Source: a phage. From it: 64,000 bases of DNA. A program made the position numbers and the translations under genes. Positions 1,572-15,447 of this stretch are shown piece after piece (within the stretch, counting starts at the first letter, position 1; each line of letters begins with the position of its first letter). Under the pieces are notes generated by a model. It was not told the DNA's origin and did no database searches. It saw only the letters and a list, made by a program, of their open reading frames with translations. Location of the stretch: NCBI GenBank assembly GCA_019338205.1, contig GCA_019338205.1_4761.1, one strand, 5' to 3'.

Positions 1572-4500
1572 TAATTTTCCTCTGTGTCGGATTCTTCGGA
1601 TCGCGTGGATTCCCTATATTATCCTTCAACCGTTTATCTACAAGTTCACGGAACATAGAGAATGTTACCGCCGACTGGTCAAACAGTGGACTCATTGCAA
1701 ATCTTCGTTCGCTTGCTTTAAGTCCGTGGAACAATTCGCTGTTCTCCTGATCATATTCAGGGGGAACCGGAAATTCTTCACCAATTAAAGGTGAAGTCAA
1801 ATATAATGCTTTTCCGGTAAGCGGGTCAATCTTAATATTTCCATCAACATCAAGATCAGCAACACGATCAGGATACACGCTAGGCAATCCGCTGTCAAAC
1901 TTATAATTTTTCAGAGATTGAATTATAGTCTCGGTGTGCTTCATGCTCAACCCGCTGTTAATGAACATCGTAAGCAGGGTAACACCGATAAACCCAAAGC
2001 CGACAGGATGAACGAATCGCATTACATCATTTGCATAGCGCGAAACTGGCAATGCGCTTTTAATCTTCATGGTGTATTGGCTTCGTGAGCGGTTGATATA
2101 GTCGATTGAACTACTCAACAACTCTTTACCACGCACACCAACAAGGATCATCCCTTCAAACGCTGTTTTCTCTGATTTGATCACTTGACCTTCTTCGAAC
2201 CGCCCGATCAGGTTATGAATGGTTACTCGCCAGCGTAGGCGACCACCTTCATATTCCCTTTCAAGATACGTCACGTTAGCCCGTCCGGTTGGAGTATAAA
2301 TCGTGCGACCTACGATATCCTCGTCAATGTTCGTTGAACTAACAACAATATCATACTCTAGTCCGGCTTGTGATTCAACCTCAATTTCCACATCTTCATT
2401 ATAAAGTAACTTAAACAAGAACTTATAAGAAGCCTCCACGCCCTTAGTGGAATAAAAATCTGATTTGCGGGATTCAAAGAATCTTACTACCGCATCTCGC
2501 TTGTTTTTATCTGCATAGATGTTTCGTTTGTTCATCTCTGACCAAAGATACTCATATGCATCTTGCTCGCGTGGATATTTGTTTTTAATCAGATTTTTTA
2601 GTTTATTATAATATGTTCCTGAACCATCACTTAAGAATTGCAGATAATATTCAGAGAATTTTCTGAAATTTTCGTTCTCAAGCAAAAAGCTATCCGGTGT
2701 CATCTTATTCAGTAAAGGCCGCAAATCTGGATCTTGCTCTCGATCGTAGTGAACCGGAACCCAGGGAACCTCTCGGACCTGATTTTGCAGTTCAGCAACA
2801 AATGCTACATTTGTAGGCTTCCAATATACACCAACCTGATCACGAACGCGATAGTTAAATTGATAGAATCCTATGATCTCTCCTGTGTTTTTATGGAACA
2901 TTACACCGGATGCATATTGTTTGAATCCTTCAAATTTAACATTGTTAAGATAACAGGTCACGGTCCCTTTATCATAAACTTCTCGGTTGACCCTATTTTG
3001 GTCAAGAATGCCAGATGTATCAACTTCTTGAGTGTAGATAACCTCTGGATAAACAACCAACGGGCGATTATCATTTGTGATCCACACACGGACACCGTTT
3101 CGACGCATCCATGTATAATCGGCCTCATTATAATACGCTTGCGGTCCTAACTCCCAAATACGCAAATCATCATAACTTGCTCTGAAAGTAGTTTGATGTA
3201 TTTTCTTATCAGTTAGATAAGTTGGCTCCTGAGAATATTTTACAGCTTCGCCCAATTCATATTTCGCGGCAGTTTCTGGATCAGGTAAAATGCTTTCGAA
3301 GTGATGATTATAATGGCTTATGAACACCTCATCACCATTGGTTGACATATTACTGAACCCATGCTGAATATATTCCCTTTCCTGCGGAGTGTTGCCAAAT
3401 ACTCTCTGAAAAGACAGACCATCACTCCCTATCAAGTATACACCCGCATCATCTGACGGAACAACGTTTTCTGGTTTAGTTGGATCTTGATAACGCTGTT
3501 TAACTTCACCAGTAACAAATACAAGCAATTTACCGTCGATCACATCCATTTTCTGAATGACAGCTTTATCATTTCCTGTTACTCGAATAACATCAGGATC
3601 GAATATTTTTTCGCCAAACGTAGGCGAACCCTGTACGGTATCAACTGGAGTATTCTTAAGACGAATCCGGCGAATAACATCCTTAGCACCAACCCACAAA
3701 TAGTCATCACTACATGCCATAGCTTCGGCGTATTTTGTGGTGTCCCCTGTTAATCTGGAAAATACACCAAAGACCTCAACGTCAAAGCCTAAATCGTTCT
3801 CGTCACCAACCTTTGCAAAAGTGATCGTATCATCACTAAATCGAACATCGTCCGCGCTCCATCGAGTATCGCTCGCTTGTCGTCCGTAAAAGATTCGATC
3901 ATATCCTAAAACGTAAGTAGTGGTTTTAGACTGATAAACGCATGTACGGGAAACCGGATTGCCTACACGGTCATTAAAAGCCTTGTATGCTTTCCATGAT
4001 TGGCCTTTATCGTTCGACACCTTCACAATCGGCTGGAACCGTTCGAAAAGGTACAAAACACCGTTCATTTCCGCTAACATAGTGCGGTTTATATCAGTAC
4101 AAACTTTTTCTATGTGGTCCTGTATTTCATGAAAGTTCTCATCAACTACAATGTAGTTTGAGATATTTGTCATGTTTGCATATTCAGGACTAAAGACAAA
4201 ATCTTCCTTCATCAATGATGCTTGAATCAGGTCAGTATTAAACTTGACATACTCTCGATTATCGTATGTAAATTTTTCCTTTATAAACTCGTTTGCAAGG
4301 TTGAACTCTCGCATCATAGAAAAATTATATGCGTTTGTTTTAAATGTCTGAAACTCTTCTGTCTCAACCCATTTACTTTGTTCAAATCCTTCTGCGGCTA
4401 CTGCTACACGAAACTTGTAATAATATTCTGGAAAAAGGTTTTTATCCTCAAACCAGTTTTGGTCGGCAGTATATCCCAGGTTTACCCAGCTTAACTCATC

Positions 4501-7973: not shown

Positions 7974-9773
7974 TCACCCAAGATCAATACGGCTACCATC
8001 AATTTTAACTGTACCAGATGCAATATCTTTAACGCTTGCACCACAATTACGGGACCAGTCACCATTAACCTGATCTGATTTAGTGCCATTGACGGTCATA
8101 TTAAAATTACCCTCAACGGTTAAATCATAGTTACCTTTAATTGTTTCGGTAGTGTTACCCTCGATCATTAATTCAGCATTACCCTTGACGTTAGCCGTCA
8201 AATTGGCGTCAAGCTGCGCGGTAACATCACCTACAACATGCATATTTGCAGTACCTTCAACGGTCTGATTAACATTGCCACGAATAAATTCAGTGACGTT
8301 ACCATCAACGGTTTGCATCACATTACCCATATAATAAACTTGCGCGTCACCTTCAACAACAACTTGCAGATTGCCTTTAACGTTGACTTTGCGACCTTGC
8401 TTAACGATCAAATAATCATCACCTTCAATCTTTTCTACCCTCGTTCCGTCCGGTCTGGTTTCTTCAAATGTACCAGAAGGATGTTTACGATGATAACGCT
8501 CGTGAGAAGGAGTATCATCAATCTCGATAATATGACCGCTCTCTGACTCGTACACATGGTTATATGGATACCTTGCAGAATACGAACTCTTAGGCTCTTT
8601 AAACATGATTCGTGTGTCTTGTGGGGTAAACGGTGCTTCTGGGTCTTCTTCTGCTCTCTGCGTCTTATAGGCAGCAATACGGGCATTTCTCAAACGTGCT
8701 CTCGGATCATCTGAAACAGTTTCCTCTTTCTTAGGAGCAATTACGCCATATGATTCTAAGTTGCCAGTAAGAATAATTTTAGAAACACGGCTGGAGCGTC
8801 CTGGAGTTTGATTAGCCCATACTGATTGACGTAATCCATCATAGGCTTGTTTCCATTCTTCCGCTAACATCGCAGCAAGACTATTCTTAAATTTACCCAA
8901 TCCACCAACGCCCATTTGAAACGCCATATTTTCTAATGCCATACGACGTGAGGCATTACATTTATTATAGACAGGTGCAATTCGTGGATGTTTGCGCATA
9001 TCACGACGAGTCTTTTCTATATCGTCAGCAAATACTTTACTAACTTCTTCGGCGGTAAGTCTTCCGTTTGTAACTTCACGCCCTACCAGCTTAGAAAGTT
9101 CATTATTGATAATACCCAGATCACTGGTTTTCTTATAAATGATCAAATGCCCGATGCCTATTGTCGGATATCCTTCTGAATCAAGATACCATTTCTCGCG
9201 ATATCCCTCATCGCCCCGCAGCATTTTTTCTATTGTAAAATCAGGATTATCATCAACCGGAATTTGGTCTAATGGCTCGTCGTCTGGATTTACTGCAACT
9301 CCAGTGTTTTCATCTCGAATATAGACACTATCAGGTTTTGTTGTTTGTCCGGTTTCTGGGTTAATACCGCCACGAGCAAGAATATTAACATCATTACCAA
9401 TATAACGAGGATATGCACCAGAAGGGTCGCAAAAACCTTCTGTAGTGAGTGGTTTCTCTGTATATTGTCCGGCAATAGTACCCAGAATAACGCAGTTTAA
9501 ATAACGTTCATCTAAAGCCAAACCAAATACCATTGAACCTTCAACAATACCAGTAGGGCTTTGACCTATACCGGAGATCGCCGCGCTTGTAATATCTTGT
9601 ACTGGCGTAATCCATAATAGATCTTCGGTTGGAAGACCTTGAATGTCACCGTGTGCGGATAGCGAAGGATGTATACCATGAATCCTAACCTGAACACGCC
9701 CCAGCATTAATGGGTCTTCCCTGTTTTCTACAATTCCGGTAAACCATTTAACGGAGTTATTAAACATTAGCAT
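7974..9773 (-). CDS. 5: baseplate hub / tail-associated lysozyme gp5
   Basis: 599 aa; T4-lysozyme-like motif DSEGYPTIGIGHLI; C-terminal beta-helix repeats (VxGxxxxx); N-terminal OB-fold region; T4 gp5 is 575 aa. Confidence 0.9.
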   Translation of the reverse strand: MLMFNNSVKWFTGIVENREDPLMLGRVQVRIHGIHPSLSAHGDIQGLPTEDLLWITPVQDITSAAISGIGQSPTGIVEGSMVFGLALDERYLNCVILGTIAGQYTEKPLTTEGFCDPSGAYPRYIGNDVNILARGGINPETGQTTKPDSVYIRDENTGVAVNPDDEPLDQIPVDDNPDFTIEKMLRGDEGYREKWYLDSEGYPTIGIGHLIIYKKTSDLGIINNELSKLVGREVTNGRLTAEEVSKVFADDIEKTRRDMRKHPRIAPVYNKCNASRRMALENMAFQMGVGGLGKFKNSLAAMLAEEWKQAYDGLRQSVWANQTPGRSSRVSKIILTGNLESYGVIAPKKEETVSDDPRARLRNARIAAYKTQRAEEDPEAPFTPQDTRIMFKEPKSSYSARYPYNHVYESESGHIIEIDDTPSHERYHRKHPSGTFEETRPDGTRVEKIEGDDYLIVKQGRKVNVKGNLQVVVEGDAQVYYMGNVMQTVDGNVTEFIRGNVNQTVEGTANMHVVGDVTAQLDANLTANVKGNAELMIEGNTTETIKGNYDLTVEGNFNMTVNGTKSDQVNGDWSRNCGASVKDIASGTVKIDGSRIDLG

Positions 9774-9784
9774 AATTAATCACC

Positions 9785-10339
9785 TTACACATCAGCCTTT
9801 TCCATTTCTCGAATGAATGCGTTAATAAATTGTTTAATTTGTGTAGGGTCTATGATCTTGATCTTGCGTCGTTCCTCATTGCGGAGGATCGCATCTTCCA
9901 GTGTGTCTACCGCCGATAATGCACCTTGAAACTGCAAATGACGATGATGAATATCCCCTTTATCATACCAATTGCTTGATCCTTTCGGATATTCTGTAAG
10001 ATTCCAATACTTGTTTCCGTCAATATCAACATGGTATAATACTTGATTTCCTCCTACATTTGCATATCGTTGTTCGGCTGATTCATATGCTGTCTCTTGA
10101 TCGGTGATCCAGTCATGAAACGGATCGTATACGTCATTAAGCATCAGCAAGATCCAGTAAAGTTGTTGGTTTCCGTATACTTCATATGCAACTTGTTCCG
10201 GTCGTGGACTACCTTGAATGTAATATGTTTGTATGTTATAATCAGAAATTATTGCGTTGAAATATGCGCGGTAATTGCGCACAATGTCAGTAATCATCTT
10301 GCCGTTGTATTCAATGGCAGGGAAGAAAGAAAAGAGCAT
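9785..10339 (-). CDS. 53: baseplate wedge protein gp53
   Basis: 184 aa; N-terminus MLFSFFPAIEY resembles T4 gp53 (MLFTFFDPIEY); directly upstream of gene 5. Confidence 0.8.
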   Translation of the reverse strand: MLFSFFPAIEYNGKMITDIVRNYRAYFNAIISDYNIQTYYIQGSPRPEQVAYEVYGNQQLYWILLMLNDVYDPFHDWITDQETAYESAEQRYANVGGNQVLYHVDIDGNKYWNLTEYPKGSSNWYDKGDIHHRHLQFQGALSAVDTLEDAILRNEERRKIKIIDPTQIKQFINAFIREMEKADV

Positions 10340-10394: not shown

Positions 10395-11090
10395 ATGGAC
10401 TATCAAAAACATTATGATCGATTAATTGAACGCGCAAAGCATAGAACGCTTGAAGGATATAAAGAAAAACATCATATTATTCCTCGTTGTATGGGAGGCG
10501 ATGATAGTCCAGAAAATATAGTTGAGTTAACGGGGTCTGAACATTTTGTTGCTCATCAACTTTTAGCAAAAATGCATCCAACACATCACGGAATTGTACA
10601 TGCGGCGAAAATATTGATGGGGTCTACCAACTATAACAATAAACAATTTGAGTGGGTAAGAAAACTTGCGGTCGAGACTTCAAGAAAATTTCATACAGGA
10701 AGAAAAAGATCCGAAGAGACTAGACGCAGAATATCAGAAGCAACTAAAGGAAAGAGAAAAGGAATTAAATTATCTGAGGAACATCGACAGAAATTATCTG
10801 CTTCATTAAAAGGTAGAGTGTTTACAGAAGAACATAAAAGAAATATTGCGTCAAGAGAAATTACACAAGAATGGAGAGACAACATCTCTAAAGCGGGTAA
10901 GGGTAGAAAGTTGTCACAAGAAAACGTAGAGAAATGGAAACGTATTCATAACACGCCAGAAATGAAACAAAAATATAGTGAATTGTCAAAGTCTCGTCCG
11001 TATTTCACCTGTCCTCATTGTGAAAAAACAGCCAATCAGGGAAATTATGTTAGATGGCATGGTGACAACTGCAAGAAGAAGGTGGTATAA
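10395..11090 (+). CDS. HNH homing endonuclease with NUMOD3-like repeats
   Basis: HHIIPRCMGGDDSPENIVELTGSEHFVAH HNH motif; repeated GRKRSEETRRRIS / GIKLSEEHRQKLS modules; C-terminal CxxC...CxxxxxC. Confidence 0.8.
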   Translation: MDYQKHYDRLIERAKHRTLEGYKEKHHIIPRCMGGDDSPENIVELTGSEHFVAHQLLAKMHPTHHGIVHAAKILMGSTNYNNKQFEWVRKLAVETSRKFHTGRKRSEETRRRISEATKGKRKGIKLSEEHRQKLSASLKGRVFTEEHKRNIASREITQEWRDNISKAGKGRKLSQENVEKWKRIHNTPEMKQKYSELSKSRPYFTCPHCEKTANQGNYVRWHGDNCKKKVV

Positions 11091-11563
11091 TGGGTAATTG
11101 CAACACATATAAGGGTAAATATAGACCTGAAAACCCGGAGAAGTATAAAGGCGACCTGAAAAAAATCGTCTACAGGTCAAGTTGGGAATTACATATAATG
11201 AAATTTTTAGACCGCAATCCTAGAGTTGCAAAATGGGGATCTGAGACCGTAGTAATTCCTTATGAGTCATCAACAGACGGAAAAAGACACAGATACTTTA
11301 TGGATTTTTACGTTAAGTTTGATGATGGCAAGGAGCATTTATGGGAAGTTAAACCAGCTAAAGAGACAAGGCCACCGGAAAAGCCAAAAAGAATGACCGC
11401 GAAGACAAAGCAACGATATATGCATGAAGTATGGACATACACAAAAAATACTGAAAAATGGTTAGCTGCCGTGAAATTATGCCAAAAGCATAACATGGAG
11501 TTTAAGATCATAACCGAACATGCATTAAAGAAAGTGTTTGGCTTTAAAGGGCTTAACAAATAG
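11090..11563 (+). CDS. 4: head completion protein gp4 (PD-(D/E)XK-like fold)
   Basis: 157 aa versus T4 gp4 150 aa; divergent from gene 53 as in T4; motif FMDFYV...LWEVKP. Confidence 0.55.
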   Translation: MGNCNTYKGKYRPENPEKYKGDLKKIVYRSSWELHIMKFLDRNPRVAKWGSETVVIPYESSTDGKRHRYFMDFYVKFDDGKEHLWEVKPAKETRPPEKPKRMTAKTKQRYMHEVWTYTKNTEKWLAAVKLCQKHNMEFKIITEHALKKVFGFKGLNK

Positions 11564-11574
11564 AGGATAATATT

Positions 11575-12396
11575 ATGAGCGTATTTGAAATAATCACAGA
11601 AGACGAAAAGCCGTCTCCCCAAAAACGAAAGTCTAAACAGTGGGTCGAATTGGGTGTAGAATTTGCGAAAGCAAAAGCCAAAGGCATGACAGCTAAAGCA
11701 TTTGCAGATTCTAAGGGAATAGCCTATGCGACTTTCACTAAAAGTATGTCTCGTTATGCCAGCGAAATTAAAACAGCAATAGAAGTTGAAAAACTAAAAG
11801 GGAAAAGTGCAAAGGGTCTCAATAAGCAGCAACGCGCAATGATGATGATTAATGATTTTCGTGCGTCTATGCGTGCTGTATCAAAGAGTCGTCCTAAAGA
11901 AAAATCACAGGAATGGTTTACTAAAACAATAAAAGCGGGAATAAAGGGACACCAGATTGTAAAACCGCAAGTAGGGCGAATCTATACCTTTATGTATGAT
12001 GCTAAGTATAAAGACACTTTGCCATATTGGGATGTTTTCCCACTGATCATTTGTCTGGGTGATTCTAAGACAAAGGCGGGTAATACTGTAATGCTGGGTC
12101 TTAACTTACACTATGTAACGCCTAAAGCCCGTCAGCAGTTTCTGGAAGCACTTTTAAAGCAATATGCATCTACTCCTACCTTGAGTAATAAAACACGCTT
12201 AAAAATCAAATGGAGCGATGTAAAAGGTATGCGTGGTAGTGACCACATGATCAAAGCATATCTACCGGGACACATTAAAACAAAACTTGTTGAGATTAGC
12301 CCGAAAGACTGGAGCAATATTATCTACCTTAACACATATAAATTTGTTTCTAAAGGTAAAAACTATGATGCAAGGAAGGTGTGGAAGGATGCTTAA
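11575..12396 (+). CDS. 2: DNA end protector protein gp2
   Basis: 273 aa versus T4 gp2 274 aa; synteny 4-2-3; SD GAGGAT. Confidence 0.55.
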   Translation: MSVFEIITEDEKPSPQKRKSKQWVELGVEFAKAKAKGMTAKAFADSKGIAYATFTKSMSRYASEIKTAIEVEKLKGKSAKGLNKQQRAMMMINDFRASMRAVSKSRPKEKSQEWFTKTIKAGIKGHQIVKPQVGRIYTFMYDAKYKDTLPYWDVFPLIICLGDSKTKAGNTVMLGLNLHYVTPKARQQFLEALLKQYASTPTLSNKTRLKIKWSDVKGMRGSDHMIKAYLPGHIKTKLVEISPKDWSNIIYLNTYKFVSKGKNYDARKVWKDA

Positions 12397-13417
12397 TATT
12401 AATTCCGTGGGGAGCAATCCCCACGTTTATTATCTTCGTCAACCGGAAGAAATAGAATACAGAGTAAACAAGGTAACAAAATCTCCTAGAGAATTTGCGG
12501 ATAAAGTTATTGAAAGGTGTAAACTTGTCGACCATACATTCTTAGGATTTTCTGGAGAATGGAAAGGAAAATTGACTAGATCTGTTATCCAATGCAATAA
12601 GCATGGAACTGTCTATGATGTTTCCAGTAATAGTTTCTATGCTAAAAAGGTTATTGTTGGTTGCCCTCAATGTAGGGGAGTTATGACAGAAGAGGAAGCA
12701 ACCAAATTCATTGAAGAAAAATGTAAAGATCTTGATTATGAATTTTTGGGATTTGTTGGTGGCTGGAAATCACAAATTACTAAGATGATTCTTAGATGCA
12801 AGAAACATGACCATATTTGGAAGAATACAAAGTTCTTTGATTTTAAAAATCATGGTACATGTGGTTGTAAGAAATGTGCGGCTGAACAATTTAAGACGGA
12901 ATATGTCGTTCCCGTGGAAGATGCACTATCTAGAATAGAAGATAAATGTAAAAAGTTAGGGTATGAATATATAGGTGTCGATGGTGAATGGATAGGTACT
13001 GCAAATTCATGGATAAAACTTAAATGTACAAAACATGACGCAGAATTTTCTGTAAGATATTGTACGTTCAACAGAAATGCTAAAGGGTGTCCGAAATGTA
13101 GTTCTTCTGGCTATCGTCCATCTGAGATGGGATATTTTTATATCCAGACGTTAGATGATAAATTTATAAAGTTTGGTGTAACCAATGAATTACCGGAAAC
13201 CAGAATGAAACAACATATGCAGAAATCTAAGTTTGTTCACAAACTTGTTTACGTCAAACAAAGTGTTGATGGCTGGATTCCGTGGGAACTTGAAAAGGAA
13301 ATAAAGAGAACTTATCATTGTGGCGTTGTTGATAAATCCATGTTGAAAGATGGATACACAGAAACTTTACCAATCACGGAACTTGATAACATAATTAAAT
13401 TAGCTGATACATATTAA
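12389..13417 (+). CDS. putative endonuclease: three tandem Zn-ribbon-like repeats plus C-terminal GIY-YIG/T5orf172-like domain
   Basis: three ~57-aa repeats each with CxKH...GCPxC; C-terminal GYFYIQ...KFGVT...R..QH; inserted between genes 2 and 3; start taken at ATG 12389. Confidence 0.55.
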   Translation: MLNINSVGSNPHVYYLRQPEEIEYRVNKVTKSPREFADKVIERCKLVDHTFLGFSGEWKGKLTRSVIQCNKHGTVYDVSSNSFYAKKVIVGCPQCRGVMTEEEATKFIEEKCKDLDYEFLGFVGGWKSQITKMILRCKKHDHIWKNTKFFDFKNHGTCGCKKCAAEQFKTEYVVPVEDALSRIEDKCKKLGYEYIGVDGEWIGTANSWIKLKCTKHDAEFSVRYCTFNRNAKGCPKCSSSGYRPSEMGYFYIQTLDDKFIKFGVTNELPETRMKQHMQKSKFVHKLVYVKQSVDGWIPWELEKEIKRTYHCGVVDKSMLKDGYTETLPITELDNIIKLADTY

Positions 13418-13423
13418 AATTAA

Positions 13424-13446
13424 GCCCGTCATTGACGGGCTTTTTA
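13424..13446. terminator. bidirectional intrinsic terminator
   Basis: stem gcccgtc/gacgggc with 3-nt loop followed by TTTTT; A/T-rich on the other side. Confidence 0.6.
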
Positions 13447-13701
13447 TTATAGATCGATAGCATGAGCATAACCATGTAAGAAGTCTTTTAATTCTTCCTT
13501 ATTGGTAACACGCTGTAAAATCTCTAATGCCTTGTCGCGATCACGTAATGCACCTGAAAGGGATTTTATTTGGTCATCCCTTTCTGCAATCTGCTTAAGC
13601 AGATCTGTATTGCATTTAGACAAATAGAGAACTTCACCCCGCAATGTTGCCAATTCGTTATCCAGACGATCATAGAGTTTTAACAAAATGTCTTCTGTCA
13701 T
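13447..13701 (-). CDS. hypothetical coiled-coil protein (84 aa)
   Basis: ORF track; heptad-like charged sequence; SD-like GAGGAC upstream; only minus-strand ORF in this block. Confidence 0.35.
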   Translation of the reverse strand: MTEDILLKLYDRLDNELATLRGEVLYLSKCNTDLLKQIAERDDQIKSLSGALRDRDKALEILQRVTNKEELKDFLHGYAHAIDL

Positions 13702-13862
13702 AAGAAGTCCTCGTATAGTACCCGTTTTATTTATTACTGTATAAAAATATAGTTATTGGTTAAAATATAACCAAAACGAAGAAAGATCTTTAGAATAATA
13801 GAAAATTTGTTTCGGTTAAAAAGTAGTCAGTGCCTCCGGCACGTCGCAAAGCGACAATTGTT

Positions 13863-13870
13863 AATAAATA
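13863..13870 (+). promoter_or_regulatory. late-promoter-like element AATAAATA (7/8 match to TATAAATA) upstream of gene 3
   Basis: about 22 nt upstream of ATG 13892; imperfect match. Confidence 0.3.
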
Positions 13871-13891
13871 TTTTCATTTGAGGAATCAGTA

Positions 13892-14482
13892 ATGTCTAAT
13901 CTCTTTAACTATGCTAACCCCAGCAACTGGCAGATCAATATTCCAGATGGACAACTAACAAAAGGCTTTACTTTAAATGCTCAAGGTGTTACACTTCCGG
14001 CTATAACCATTCCACCGACTAAGCAAGTTGCTGGTCAATATGGTTTGGCGGTCGCTGATTATCCGTCTAGTCATGTGGAGTTTGACCCGTTGGTAGTCCG
14101 GTTTATTGTCGATGAGCATTTGGAAAGCTATCTAAACCTTTACACATGGATGCTTTCTATAGTAGACTACAATAACGGTAACTCCACTGCGTGGAAGGAT
14201 TCAATGCCGGAAGCCGTTCAAGTTCACATGATGGACAACGAACGCCGTAACATTGTGTGCACTTTTAACTTTTATGGTTGTTGGTGTTCACAATTGGGGG
14301 AACTTGAGTTAACATACACCGATGATATGCATGAATCTCTGGTATGTACTGCAATTCTTCCATTTAAAACGATGAGCATTGAACGTGATGGTCAGCTGAT
14401 CGTTCCTCGCCCAGCAATTCAGGCGGCGGATCGTCAGAGGGTGGAAGGTATTAAAGCTATGCACCCTGCTTTTAGAAAGTAA
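13892..14482 (+). CDS. 3: tail completion and sheath stabiliser protein gp3
   Basis: 196 aa; position between gene 2 and gene 1 as in T4. Confidence 0.5.
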   Translation: MSNLFNYANPSNWQINIPDGQLTKGFTLNAQGVTLPAITIPPTKQVAGQYGLAVADYPSSHVEFDPLVVRFIVDEHLESYLNLYTWMLSIVDYNNGNSTAWKDSMPEAVQVHMMDNERRNIVCTFNFYGCWCSQLGELELTYTDDMHESLVCTAILPFKTMSIERDGQLIVPRPAIQAADRQRVEGIKAMHPAFRK

Positions 14483-14497
14483 TAAGAGGCTTATATA

Positions 14498-15154
14498 ATG
14501 AAATTGATTGCACTTTGTGGTAAAAAGCGAGTAGGAAAAGATACTGCCGCGTTAATCATTGATGGACACAGTTATCAACTGGCAGCACCGATCAAAGAAA
14601 TCTTATGCGAATGTCAACCAGACTTAGGTCTGACTTATCTTGACTTTGACGGGTTAGGTCGTGACAGAGAAGCCGATCTAGGTATTGATACCTATACCGC
14701 GCATAAGTGGTTTATTCAGTGTCTGCTTATGCTAGATTCGAAGTATGGCGGTAGTTCCTTTACTTGTGATCGTCTGGCTGAGATTTACAAGGTCGTTAAT
14801 GAGATCGGCGAAAAACATAATAACGTCTGGTCTATTCGTCTCATGTTAACCACTCTCGGTACTGATATAATGGTTAACTTGATCAATCCGCTTTATTGGT
14901 GTAATCTCTTCGTGAATGAGTTTATGAAGCGCAAAAATGAAGAAGGGTATTTTGTAGTGGTTGATGTGCGTCAGCCTATTGAAATTGCTCTTATGCGTGC
15001 TATGGGTGCTAAGGTGTTGCATATTCAGCGTGATACTGGTATTGTATCGACTCACTCCACCGAAAAAGGAATTTTGCCTATTGACGGTGAAACAGTTATC
15101 ATAAATAATGGCACATTAGAAGAATTTGAAAGCGAGATTCTCGCGAACATTTAA
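14498..15154 (+). CDS. 1: deoxynucleoside monophosphate kinase gp1
   Basis: P-loop CGKKRVGKDT; WSIRLMLTTLGTDIMVN matches T4 gp1 region WSVRRLMQALGTDLIVN. Confidence 0.9.
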   Translation: MKLIALCGKKRVGKDTAALIIDGHSYQLAAPIKEILCECQPDLGLTYLDFDGLGRDREADLGIDTYTAHKWFIQCLLMLDSKYGGSSFTCDRLAEIYKVVNEIGEKHNNVWSIRLMLTTLGTDIMVNLINPLYWCNLFVNEFMKRKNEEGYFVVVDVRQPIEIALMRAMGAKVLHIQRDTGIVSTHSTEKGILPIDGETVIINNGTLEEFESEILANI

Positions 15155-15186
15155 TAAAAAGTTATCAACAAGTAGGAGATGTGAAT

Positions 15187-15447
15187 ATGTCCAATCAGCA
15201 TGAACAAATGATTAATGTCCTGAAAGTACGTCTGTTTGACACTCAAGAAAAGGCCGCATTCTTAGAAGGCCAACTGAAAGATCGTGAGCGTGTATTGATG
15301 GAACTGGTACGCATTCTGGGTATTCAGCCAGACGAAAACGGGACTGTTTCCCTTGATGCTATTGTCGAAGAAGTGAAAGCACTTCTCCCTAAAGACGAAG
15401 CAGCGGAAGACGCAGAAGAGGAAGTAGAACTGATCACGGAGGCTTGA
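15187..15447 (+). CDS. 57A: tail fibre assembly chaperone gp57A
   Basis: small acidic coiled-coil protein; LKVRLFDTQEKAA resembles T4 gp57A; SD AGGAG 8 nt upstream. Confidence 0.7.
   Translation: MSNQHEQMINVLKVRLFDTQEKAAFLEGQLKDRERVLMELVRILGIQPDENGTVSLDAIVEEVKALLPKDEAAEDAEEEVELITEA

Follow-up and report, generated by a model that had tools for sequence, protein, structure and literature searches.

A putative homing endonuclease gene of the CapR-zinc-finger/T5orf172 family at the gene 2 junction of an RB49-like coliphage

In several proteins of phage ICP1 the N-terminus is CapR-like and a T5orf172 domain forms the C-terminus (Netter et al. 2021, PMC8096241). A survey of 229 T5orf172 genes found that 200 (87%) specify CapR, DUF723 or DUF4379 zinc fingers, that many encode several fingers in tandem like 'beads on a string', and that these genes cluster beside essential genes (Barth, Dunham & Seed 2023, PMC10448857). 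According to the same survey T4 lacks T5orf172 genes, and Krischvirus, the genus of RB49-like T4-type coliphages, is not mentioned in it. Here we analyze a 64,000-nt stretch of phage DNA (assembly GCA_019338205.1, contig GCA_019338205.1_4761.1; hereafter the window), which by its sequence is from a Krischvirus: a megablast search with positions 11000-15200 returned 59 phage records, all of them RB49-like T4-type coliphages of this genus at 94-99% identity. Between gene 2 and the terminator of gene 2 the window carries a gene, here called HEG-A, that is likely a free-standing homing endonuclease gene (HEG) of the CapR-zinc-finger/T5orf172 family. HEG-A is an uncharacterized new member of that published family, in a genus for which the family has not been discussed. 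The gene and its predicted modules are as follows.

12389-13417, + strand: putative homing endonuclease gene (HEG-A), 342 amino acids plus stop; orthologue of Phi1 ORF130.1
12491-12673, + strand: predicted zinc-finger repeat 1 (residues 35-95), ligands C69/H72/C92/C95 (Pfam CapR, repeat alignment, AlphaFold2)
12695-12877, + strand: predicted zinc-finger repeat 2 (residues 103-163), ligands C137/H140/C160/C163 (Pfam CapR, repeat alignment, AlphaFold2)
12920-13099, + strand: predicted zinc-finger repeat 3 (residues 178-237), ligands C213/H216/C234/C237 (Pfam CapR, repeat alignment, AlphaFold2)
13106-13414, + strand: predicted C-terminal GIY-YIG-like (T5orf172/MUG113-type) nuclease domain (residues 240-342)

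The coordinates of the open reading frame (ORF) proved exact on checking. The three repeats are homologous to one another (pairwise BLASTP E-values of 7e-15, 1e-13 and 2e-10), and the Pfam CapR model (PF21817) matches three stretches of the protein with 55.7 bits (cutoff 24.2 bits; E 5.8e-15), the best of them spanning residues 108-161 in repeat 2. Each repeat carries CxKH and, 22-23 residues further on, GCxxC (C69-N-K-H72...G-C92-P-Q-C95, C137-K-K-H140...G-C160-K-K-C163 and C213-T-K-H216...G-C234-P-K-C237). The initial annotation had described three tandem repeats of about 57 residues with CxKH...GCPxC; their number stands, while the period is 68-76 residues with a core of about 61, and GCPxC holds for repeats 1 and 3, repeat 2 reading GCKKC. 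The spacing agrees with that of the two zinc knuckles of CapR (four ligands, ~22-26 residues apart, CxxC...CxC), with His in place of Cys as the second ligand in HEG-A and likewise in many close homologues. In CapR itself, DNA binding depends on the four zinc-ligand cysteines (Netter et al. 2021, PMC8096241). An AlphaFold2 model built with 32 homologues gives each repeat a helix, three strands and a short helix. Its mean per-residue confidence (pLDDT) of 83.9, together with a predicted template-modelling score (pTM) of 0.38, indicates that HEG-A consists of well-folded modules without a fixed mutual arrangement.

When the C-terminal 103 residues were modelled alone, pLDDT rose to 96.3 and pTM to 0.88, and the predicted beta-beta-alpha-beta-alpha topology corresponds to the GIY-YIG alpha/beta fold. 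Many phage proteins in BFVD, a collection of predicted viral structures, match this domain at TM 0.8-0.95, and the names among these matches include 'CapR homology', 'GIY-YIG' and 'Bacteriophage T5 Orf172 DNA-binding' domain-containing protein as well as 'homing endonuclease'. An exhaustive phmmer search with the same 103 residues yielded 416 representatives, of which 136 (E <= 1.6e-7) were scanned for domains: MUG113 was found in 29 and T5orf172 in 13 (E <= 1e-3), and CapR in 83, DUF4379 in 49 and DUF723 in 29. Y251, K261, G263, E302, G322, E325 and T326 are invariant over the 136 relatives, and R272 is present in at least 90%. HEG-A accordingly has a Tyr in the first strand, a K/Y-x-G motif in the second, and the catalytic-type Arg and Glu. 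The signature read in this domain by the initial annotation is there in full (GYFYIQ at residues 248-253, KFGVT at 261-265, R272 and Q275-H276), so that modelled fold and motifs both support its assignment as GIY-YIG/T5orf172-like. We thus assign the domain to the T5orf172/MUG113 branch of the GIY-YIG superfamily, as a diverged member that retains its catalytic-type residues. PHROGs assigns the whole protein to phrog_681, 'endonuclease' (E 2e-79). Phmmer and profile searches of Protein Data Bank (PDB) sequences with HEG-A gave chance matches only, and Foldseek found no significant PDB match for the full-length model, as is expected of a beads-on-a-string model with so low a pTM.

The closest described counterparts of HEG-A are in ICP1. 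Gp53, Gp121, Gp130, Gp165 and Gp174 of that phage have an N-terminal array of CapR/DUF723/DUF4379 type and a C-terminal T5orf172 domain, in the same order as in HEG-A, and tblastn aligns HEG-A at 26% identity with the ICP1 'tcgB putative homing endonuclease'. The ICP1-type T5orf172 genes and HEG-A are alike in their beads-on-a-string fingers, essential-gene neighbors, patchy presence and module exchange. They differ in that HEG-A resides in a T4-type coliphage, has CxxH rather than CxxC in its first knuckle, and has a nuclease domain too diverged to be recognized by Pfam T5orf172 by itself. As an array of CapR fingers joined to T5orf172 is the defining architecture of a published, large and widespread family of phage homing endonucleases (PMC8096241, PMC10448857), we have dropped the claim of the initial annotation that this architecture is new, and have kept its suggestion of a homing endonuclease as the best explanation. 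CapR, from PLE satellites of Vibrio cholerae and the founder of PF21817 (PMC8096241), is the same domain as the HEG-A repeats, but it is a single-domain repressor without a nuclease, whereas HEG-A has three copies, with C-H-C-C ligands, fused to one. Odn (ICP1 Gp88; PMC8263062) likewise ends in a T5orf172 domain, to which HEG-A is weakly similar; unlike HEG-A, it has a RepA_N DNA-binding domain and is an anti-satellite defence nuclease, not a homing element. The Seg proteins of T4 and I-TevI resemble HEG-A in being encoded by free-standing or intron-borne genes in T4-type genomes, between essential genes, and in their GIY-YIG fold, modular DNA-binding region (with a zinc finger in I-TevI) and co-conversion of flanking markers, which is proposed for HEG-A. 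Seg-type proteins, however, have an N-terminal GIY-YIG domain and C-terminal DNA binding, and in HEG-A the repeats are N-terminal and the nuclease domain C-terminal.

A counterpart of HEG-A has already been deposited in GenBank with the Phi1 genome (ORF130.1), and the genes at the gene 2 junction of Phi1, ECD7 and JSE bear the RefSeq label 'endonuclease'. Neither Edgell et al. 2010 (PMC2988022) nor Arbiol et al. 2010 (PMC2839356) treated the counterpart of HEG-A as an endonuclease; the latter comparison of Phi1 with RB49 recognized no homing endonucleases besides segC and an HNH gene, and counted the other unique genes as ORFans. We propose that the annotation at this junction be changed from 'hypothetical protein' to 'putative homing endonuclease (CapR zinc fingers, T5orf172/GIY-YIG domain)'.

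The case for mobility comes from the distribution of HEG-A and from the DNA around it. The relevant features are listed below; here and later, local gene names are taken from the annotation of orthologous genes in related phage records.

11575-12396, + strand: gene 2 (DNA end protector; orthologue annotation), whose 3' end holds the linked tract
12327-12393, + strand: HEG-linked variant of the gene 2 3' tail, candidate target or co-conversion tract
12394-12402, + strand: left junction, TAATATTAA, including the gene 2 stop; imperfect 9-bp direct repeat of the right junction
13415-13423, + strand: right junction, TAAAATTAA, including the HEG-A stop; a single TAA(C/G)ATTAA in the empty site
13422-13442, both strands: bidirectional intrinsic terminator common to gene 2/HEG-A (+) and the ORF130 homologue (-)
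13447-13701, - strand: small conserved ORF, homologue of RB49 ORF130

HEG-A DNA is present in 11 of 58 Krischvirus records (~9 of ~45 phages), every time at the gene 2 junction. The records are those of ELT3, ECD7 (two), Skers, Cognac, FL37, FL38, pEJ01, G2248 and Phi1 (two). All 11 have an intact ORF, free of frameshifts and truncations, and nucleotide identity to the window gene is 84% in Phi1 and 98.7-99.9% in the others. RB49 and most relatives lack the gene, and exact empty sites are found in RB49, MIZ6 and others, which bears out the view of the initial annotation that HEG-A is an insertion. It interrupts the 4-2-3-1 block, as that annotation had also noted, by sitting between gene 2 and the minus-strand ORF that precedes gene 3. 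Because the gene is missing from most relatives, a conserved structural role for its protein is ruled out.

Comparison of the window with RB49 and MIZ6 over the flanks of the insert (1.3 kb on the left, 1.7 kb on the right) shows 0-4 differences per 50 nt, except in one tract. There, at 12327-12393, 19 of 67 positions (28%) depart from the empty-site allele, against ~1% elsewhere. The tract is identical to the window in the carriers ELT3 and G2248, and in the gene 2 tail the carriers of the window-type allele are 99.3-100% alike, while most empty genomes are 83-88% identical. Each HEG occupant of the junction is accompanied, in every case, by its own gene 2 tail allele. At the protein level the substitutions are conservative (YMPTYQFMSKGKK to YLNTYKFVSKGKN), and gp2 should therefore remain functional. 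Presence or absence at one exact site among close relatives, and a flanking tract of linked divergence (from co-conversion or target immunity), are both what a homing gene would show, and together they strongly suggest that HEG-A is mobile.

These observations also bear on whether HEG-A could be a domesticated derivative that no longer homes and works for the phage by binding or cutting DNA at specific sequences, perhaps as a transcriptional repressor like CapR or, like Odn, as a weapon against rival phages or satellites. The repressor CapR and the anti-satellite nuclease Odn are themselves domesticated relatives (PMC8096241, PMC8263062), and an ORF that is intact in all 11 records and under purifying selection would suit such a role. 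We nevertheless think domestication unlikely. Patchiness among near-identical phages, a single exact site, a distant paralogue as alternative occupant and a linked flank are what one would expect of a selfish element that is, or recently was, active, and within the window there is no hint of a target besides the homologous locus.

The junctions can be placed to the nucleotide. In empty genomes GGATGCATAA(C/G)ATTAA is followed directly by GCCCGTCAATGACGGGCTTTTTT, and in occupied genomes GGATGCTTAATATTAA meets TTCCGTGG at the left boundary and, ~1 kb further on, CATATTAAAATTAA meets GCCCGTCATTGACGGGC at the right. The insert thus lies between the gene 2 stop and a pre-existing terminator, with TAAnATTAA at either end. 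The hairpin at 13422-13442 scores as a terminator on both strands (-18.1 kcal/mol, z = -5.1 versus shuffles), in agreement with the bidirectional terminator that had been noted after HEG-A; it is identical in empty sites and is therefore host sequence, outside the insert. A longer homology shared by the two insert ends (hairpin plus T-run) was considered and rejected as evidence, since the alignment covers only ~16 bp and 6% of shuffles score as high (p ~0.06).

Hairpins at both ends of the insert and imperfect 9-bp direct repeats (TAAnATTAA) at both junctions could also mark a passive cassette of the PeSL-like kind, gained and lost by homologous or illegitimate recombination between flanking short repeats and stem-loops without involvement of the nuclease. 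The clean empty site beside a HEG-linked tail in MIZ4 and MIZ5 is what excision between the repeats would leave, and in the study from which the PeSL model comes (PMC2839356) the unique genes of Phi1 in conserved regions are ORFans. A PeSL, however, pairs a strong sigma-70 early promoter with its stem-loop, and no promoter element was found beside the hairpins, promoter-like matches being at chance level (10 observed versus 9.2 expected). The similarity between the insert ends, at ~16 bp, is itself not significant. Passive exchange also leaves unexplained why two unrelated-looking members of a nuclease family occupy the same nucleotide, and why a sharply bounded tract is 28% divergent. We consider it very improbable.

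If HEG-A is a homing endonuclease gene, as we favor, the beads-on-a-string array of its three CapR-type zinc modules (C-H-C-C) would recognize an extended DNA site in gene-less phages, located at or close to the 3' end of gene 2 and the intergenic junction. The GIY-YIG-like domain (Y251, K261-F-G263, R272, E302, E325) would cleave the gene-less DNA in mixed infection, and recombinational repair, with the HEG-carrying genome as template, would then bring in both the gene and the neighboring ~67 bp of gene 2. Expression would probably be low, being coupled to gene 2 and passing through a terminator-like hairpin.

Several points weigh against homing. No member of the T5orf172 family has experimentally demonstrated homing (PMC10448857); in-vitro cleavage among T5orf172 proteins has been shown for Odn only (PMC8263062), and sequence-specific DNA binding in the CapR homology family for CapR itself only (PMC8096241). 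HEG-A has no direct Pfam match to T5orf172 (PF10544), MUG113 (PF13455) or GIY-YIG even at E <= 1, and NCBIfam scans, with the full protein or with the C-terminal domain alone, returned no match. An hhalign comparison of the C-terminal family profile with the I-TevI catalytic domain alone gave no significant alignment, and sequence comparison did not establish the equivalence of HEG-A residues to those of I-TevI. Odn E180, which is experimentally essential (PMC8263062), stands opposite HEG-A E302 in a full-length hhalign alignment of 95 columns with the family profile, but this alignment is weak (probability 3%). With regard to the flank, the linkage is not absolute, as MIZ4, MIZ5 and kvi combine a linked gene 2 tail, 98-99.3% identical to that of the window, with a clean empty site (in MIZ4 at L007 1540-1720); this state fits either precise loss of the gene or a co-conversion that stopped short of it, and the three phages may hold resistant-but-empty alleles. 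Finally, the divergent flank is confined to the left side, and the tract could mark DNA acquired from a diverged donor instead of the target site.

A sequence that falls under the Pfam thresholds for T5orf172 and MUG113 might also be expected of an inactive relic, a former homing endonuclease that is decaying and is kept by linkage to essential genes, and degeneration after fixation is expected of homing endonuclease genes. Yet frameshifts or truncations occur in none of the 11 records, all family-invariant residues are kept, the ratio of nonsynonymous to synonymous divergence (dN/dS) is well under 1 between alleles that are synonymously saturated in repeats 2-3, and HEG-A is far from fixation in the genus. 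With every copy intact and constrained, we regard decay as the least probable of the explanations considered here.

HEG-A is not the only occupant of this junction. A 380-residue paralogue with 27% identity to HEG-A takes its place in JSE, G37-3, PTE-Eco09 and AV108. This JSE-type occupant (JSE EpJSE_00134, PTE-Eco09_023) belongs to the same family and has the same right boundary, TAACATTAA followed by GCCCGTC, but it has four fingers where HEG-A has three, starts at its own ATG 57 nt after gene 2 with TATAAAAATA before it, and accompanies a third gene 2 allele that is divergent over ~500 bp, whereas the HEG-A tract is only 67 bp. A hairpin directly after the gene 2 stop, before its ATG, is comparable to the hairpin of HEG-A described below. 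The JSE-type protein matches T5orf172 only weakly (E 0.0075; 17.2 bits, under the 20-bit cutoff). A further gene 2 tail allele is found in Phi1 and in metagenomic contig L009, whose tail resembles that of Phi1.

The Phi1 and window versions of HEG-A are mosaic with respect to one another. Nucleotide identity between them is 93-98% in the N-terminus and repeat 1 and 99% in the nuclease domain, against 71% in repeat 2 and 59% in repeat 3. In repeats 2-3 synonymous sites are saturated (dS 1.8-2.5) with a dN/dS of 0.14-0.17, and over the alleles dN/dS is 0.06-0.17, which signals purifying selection on both. The pattern is that of module exchange in the DNA-binding array, with both versions under selection; exchange of DNA-binding modules is known in Vibrio phages (Barth et al. 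2023, PMC10448857). The swap of fingers 2-3 goes with a different gene 2 tail and, although only two lineages are involved, this suggests an altered specificity. Whether the swap is natural re-targeting, in which the CapR-finger array changes specificity to follow or to escape target variation, is doubtful, and we raise it tentatively. If it were, gene-less phages with the 'resistant' tail (MIZ4, MIZ5, kvi) would be the next substrate, and the Krischvirus gene 2 junction would offer a compact natural system for learning how CapR fingers read DNA and a place where one could watch a homing endonuclease and its target engaged in an arms race.

HEG-A leaves the general picture of homing endonucleases unchanged. 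It does indicate that CapR-finger/T5orf172 elements, discussed mainly for ICP1, T5-like and Aeromonas phages, also colonize T4-type coliphages, that they do so at core structural-gene junctions, and that at least three lineages compete for one site. The sequenced Krischvirus genomes form a panel of empty, occupied, paralogue-occupied, resistant-but-empty and finger-swapped states.

The zinc-finger/T5orf172 family seems to have expanded in Krischvirus. FL04 has a further paralogue elsewhere (L014 2228-3442), directly 3' of a gene 32 homologue, and BFVD matches from phages kaaroe (414 residues) and JEP8 (541 residues) are additional zinc-finger/T5orf172 paralogues. Within the window tblastn found no paralogue of HEG-A, a weak match at 3673-3897 being a chance one inside a gene for a 1028-residue baseplate protein. 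Beyond the genus, tblastn relatives occur in 454 phage records, including T5, ICP1, Aeromonas, Klebsiella and Salmonella phages, and the T5 gene T5.141 has been noted as similar to RB49 ORF239c. Salmonella homologues of 360 residues, named 'GIY-YIG nuclease family protein' (L011 8001-9083, on a Salmonella enterica contig), lie near genes for a GpA-type large terminase and pRha, and probably belong to prophages, not to host core DNA.

With regard to expression, the HEG-A ATG and the gene 2 stop overlap (ATGCTTAA), and AAGGTG stands 7 nt 5' of the start codon, an arrangement that suggests translational coupling to a late structural gene. A second in-frame ATG at 12365, 24 nt 5' of this start, is the one chosen in database entry P0001. 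The early codons of HEG-A contain the following element.

12406-12435, + strand: terminator-like hairpin, CGTGGGGA-GCAA-TCCCCACG plus TTTATTATCT, in HEG-A codons 6-16

The hairpin begins 10 nt past the gene 2 stop, its stem is followed by TTTATTATCT, and the stem is retained in Phi1 and in contig L009. Homologues from other hosts start ~13 residues further in, past the hairpin, which places it in a lineage-specific 5' extension. It is plausible that each cassette preserves termination after gene 2 and holds expression of its nuclease low; low expression is typical of T4 homing endonuclease genes. No exact match to the T4-type late promoter TATAAATA was found upstream near HEG-A. The linked gene 2 tail has TATAAATT at 12337-12344, a 7/8 match to TATAAATA ~45 nt before the HEG-A ATG, where the RB49/empty-site allele has TATCAGTT; in A+T-rich DNA this may be chance.

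The remaining genes around the locus, named from orthologue annotation, are these.

7974-9773, - strand: gene 5
9785-10339, - strand: gene 53
10395-11090, + strand: HNH/NUMOD3 gene
11090-11563, + strand: gene 4
13892-14482, + strand: gene 3
14498-15154, + strand: gene 1

The HNH/NUMOD3 gene, between genes 53 and 4, is a second mobile endonuclease gene; its product of 231 residues has an HHIIPR motif and a NUMOD3 match and is called 'homing endonuclease' in the MIZ6 annotation. The gene is present in MIZ6 and PTE-Eco09 and absent from RB49, Phi1, ELT3 and G2248. Over the first ~150 bp of gene 4 (11090-11240) the window has ~40 differences from genomes without the HNH gene and 0-2 from carriers. 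With this gene before gene 4 and HEG-A after gene 2, the pair of genes 4 and 2 has an endonuclease gene on either side, a layout that resembles the 'HEG island' of Barth et al. 2023. In ELT3 (L005), 77 substitutions form a separate block midway along gene 4 (~150-400 in the left-flank alignment); the block is absent from the other compared genomes and suggests another local recombination tract.

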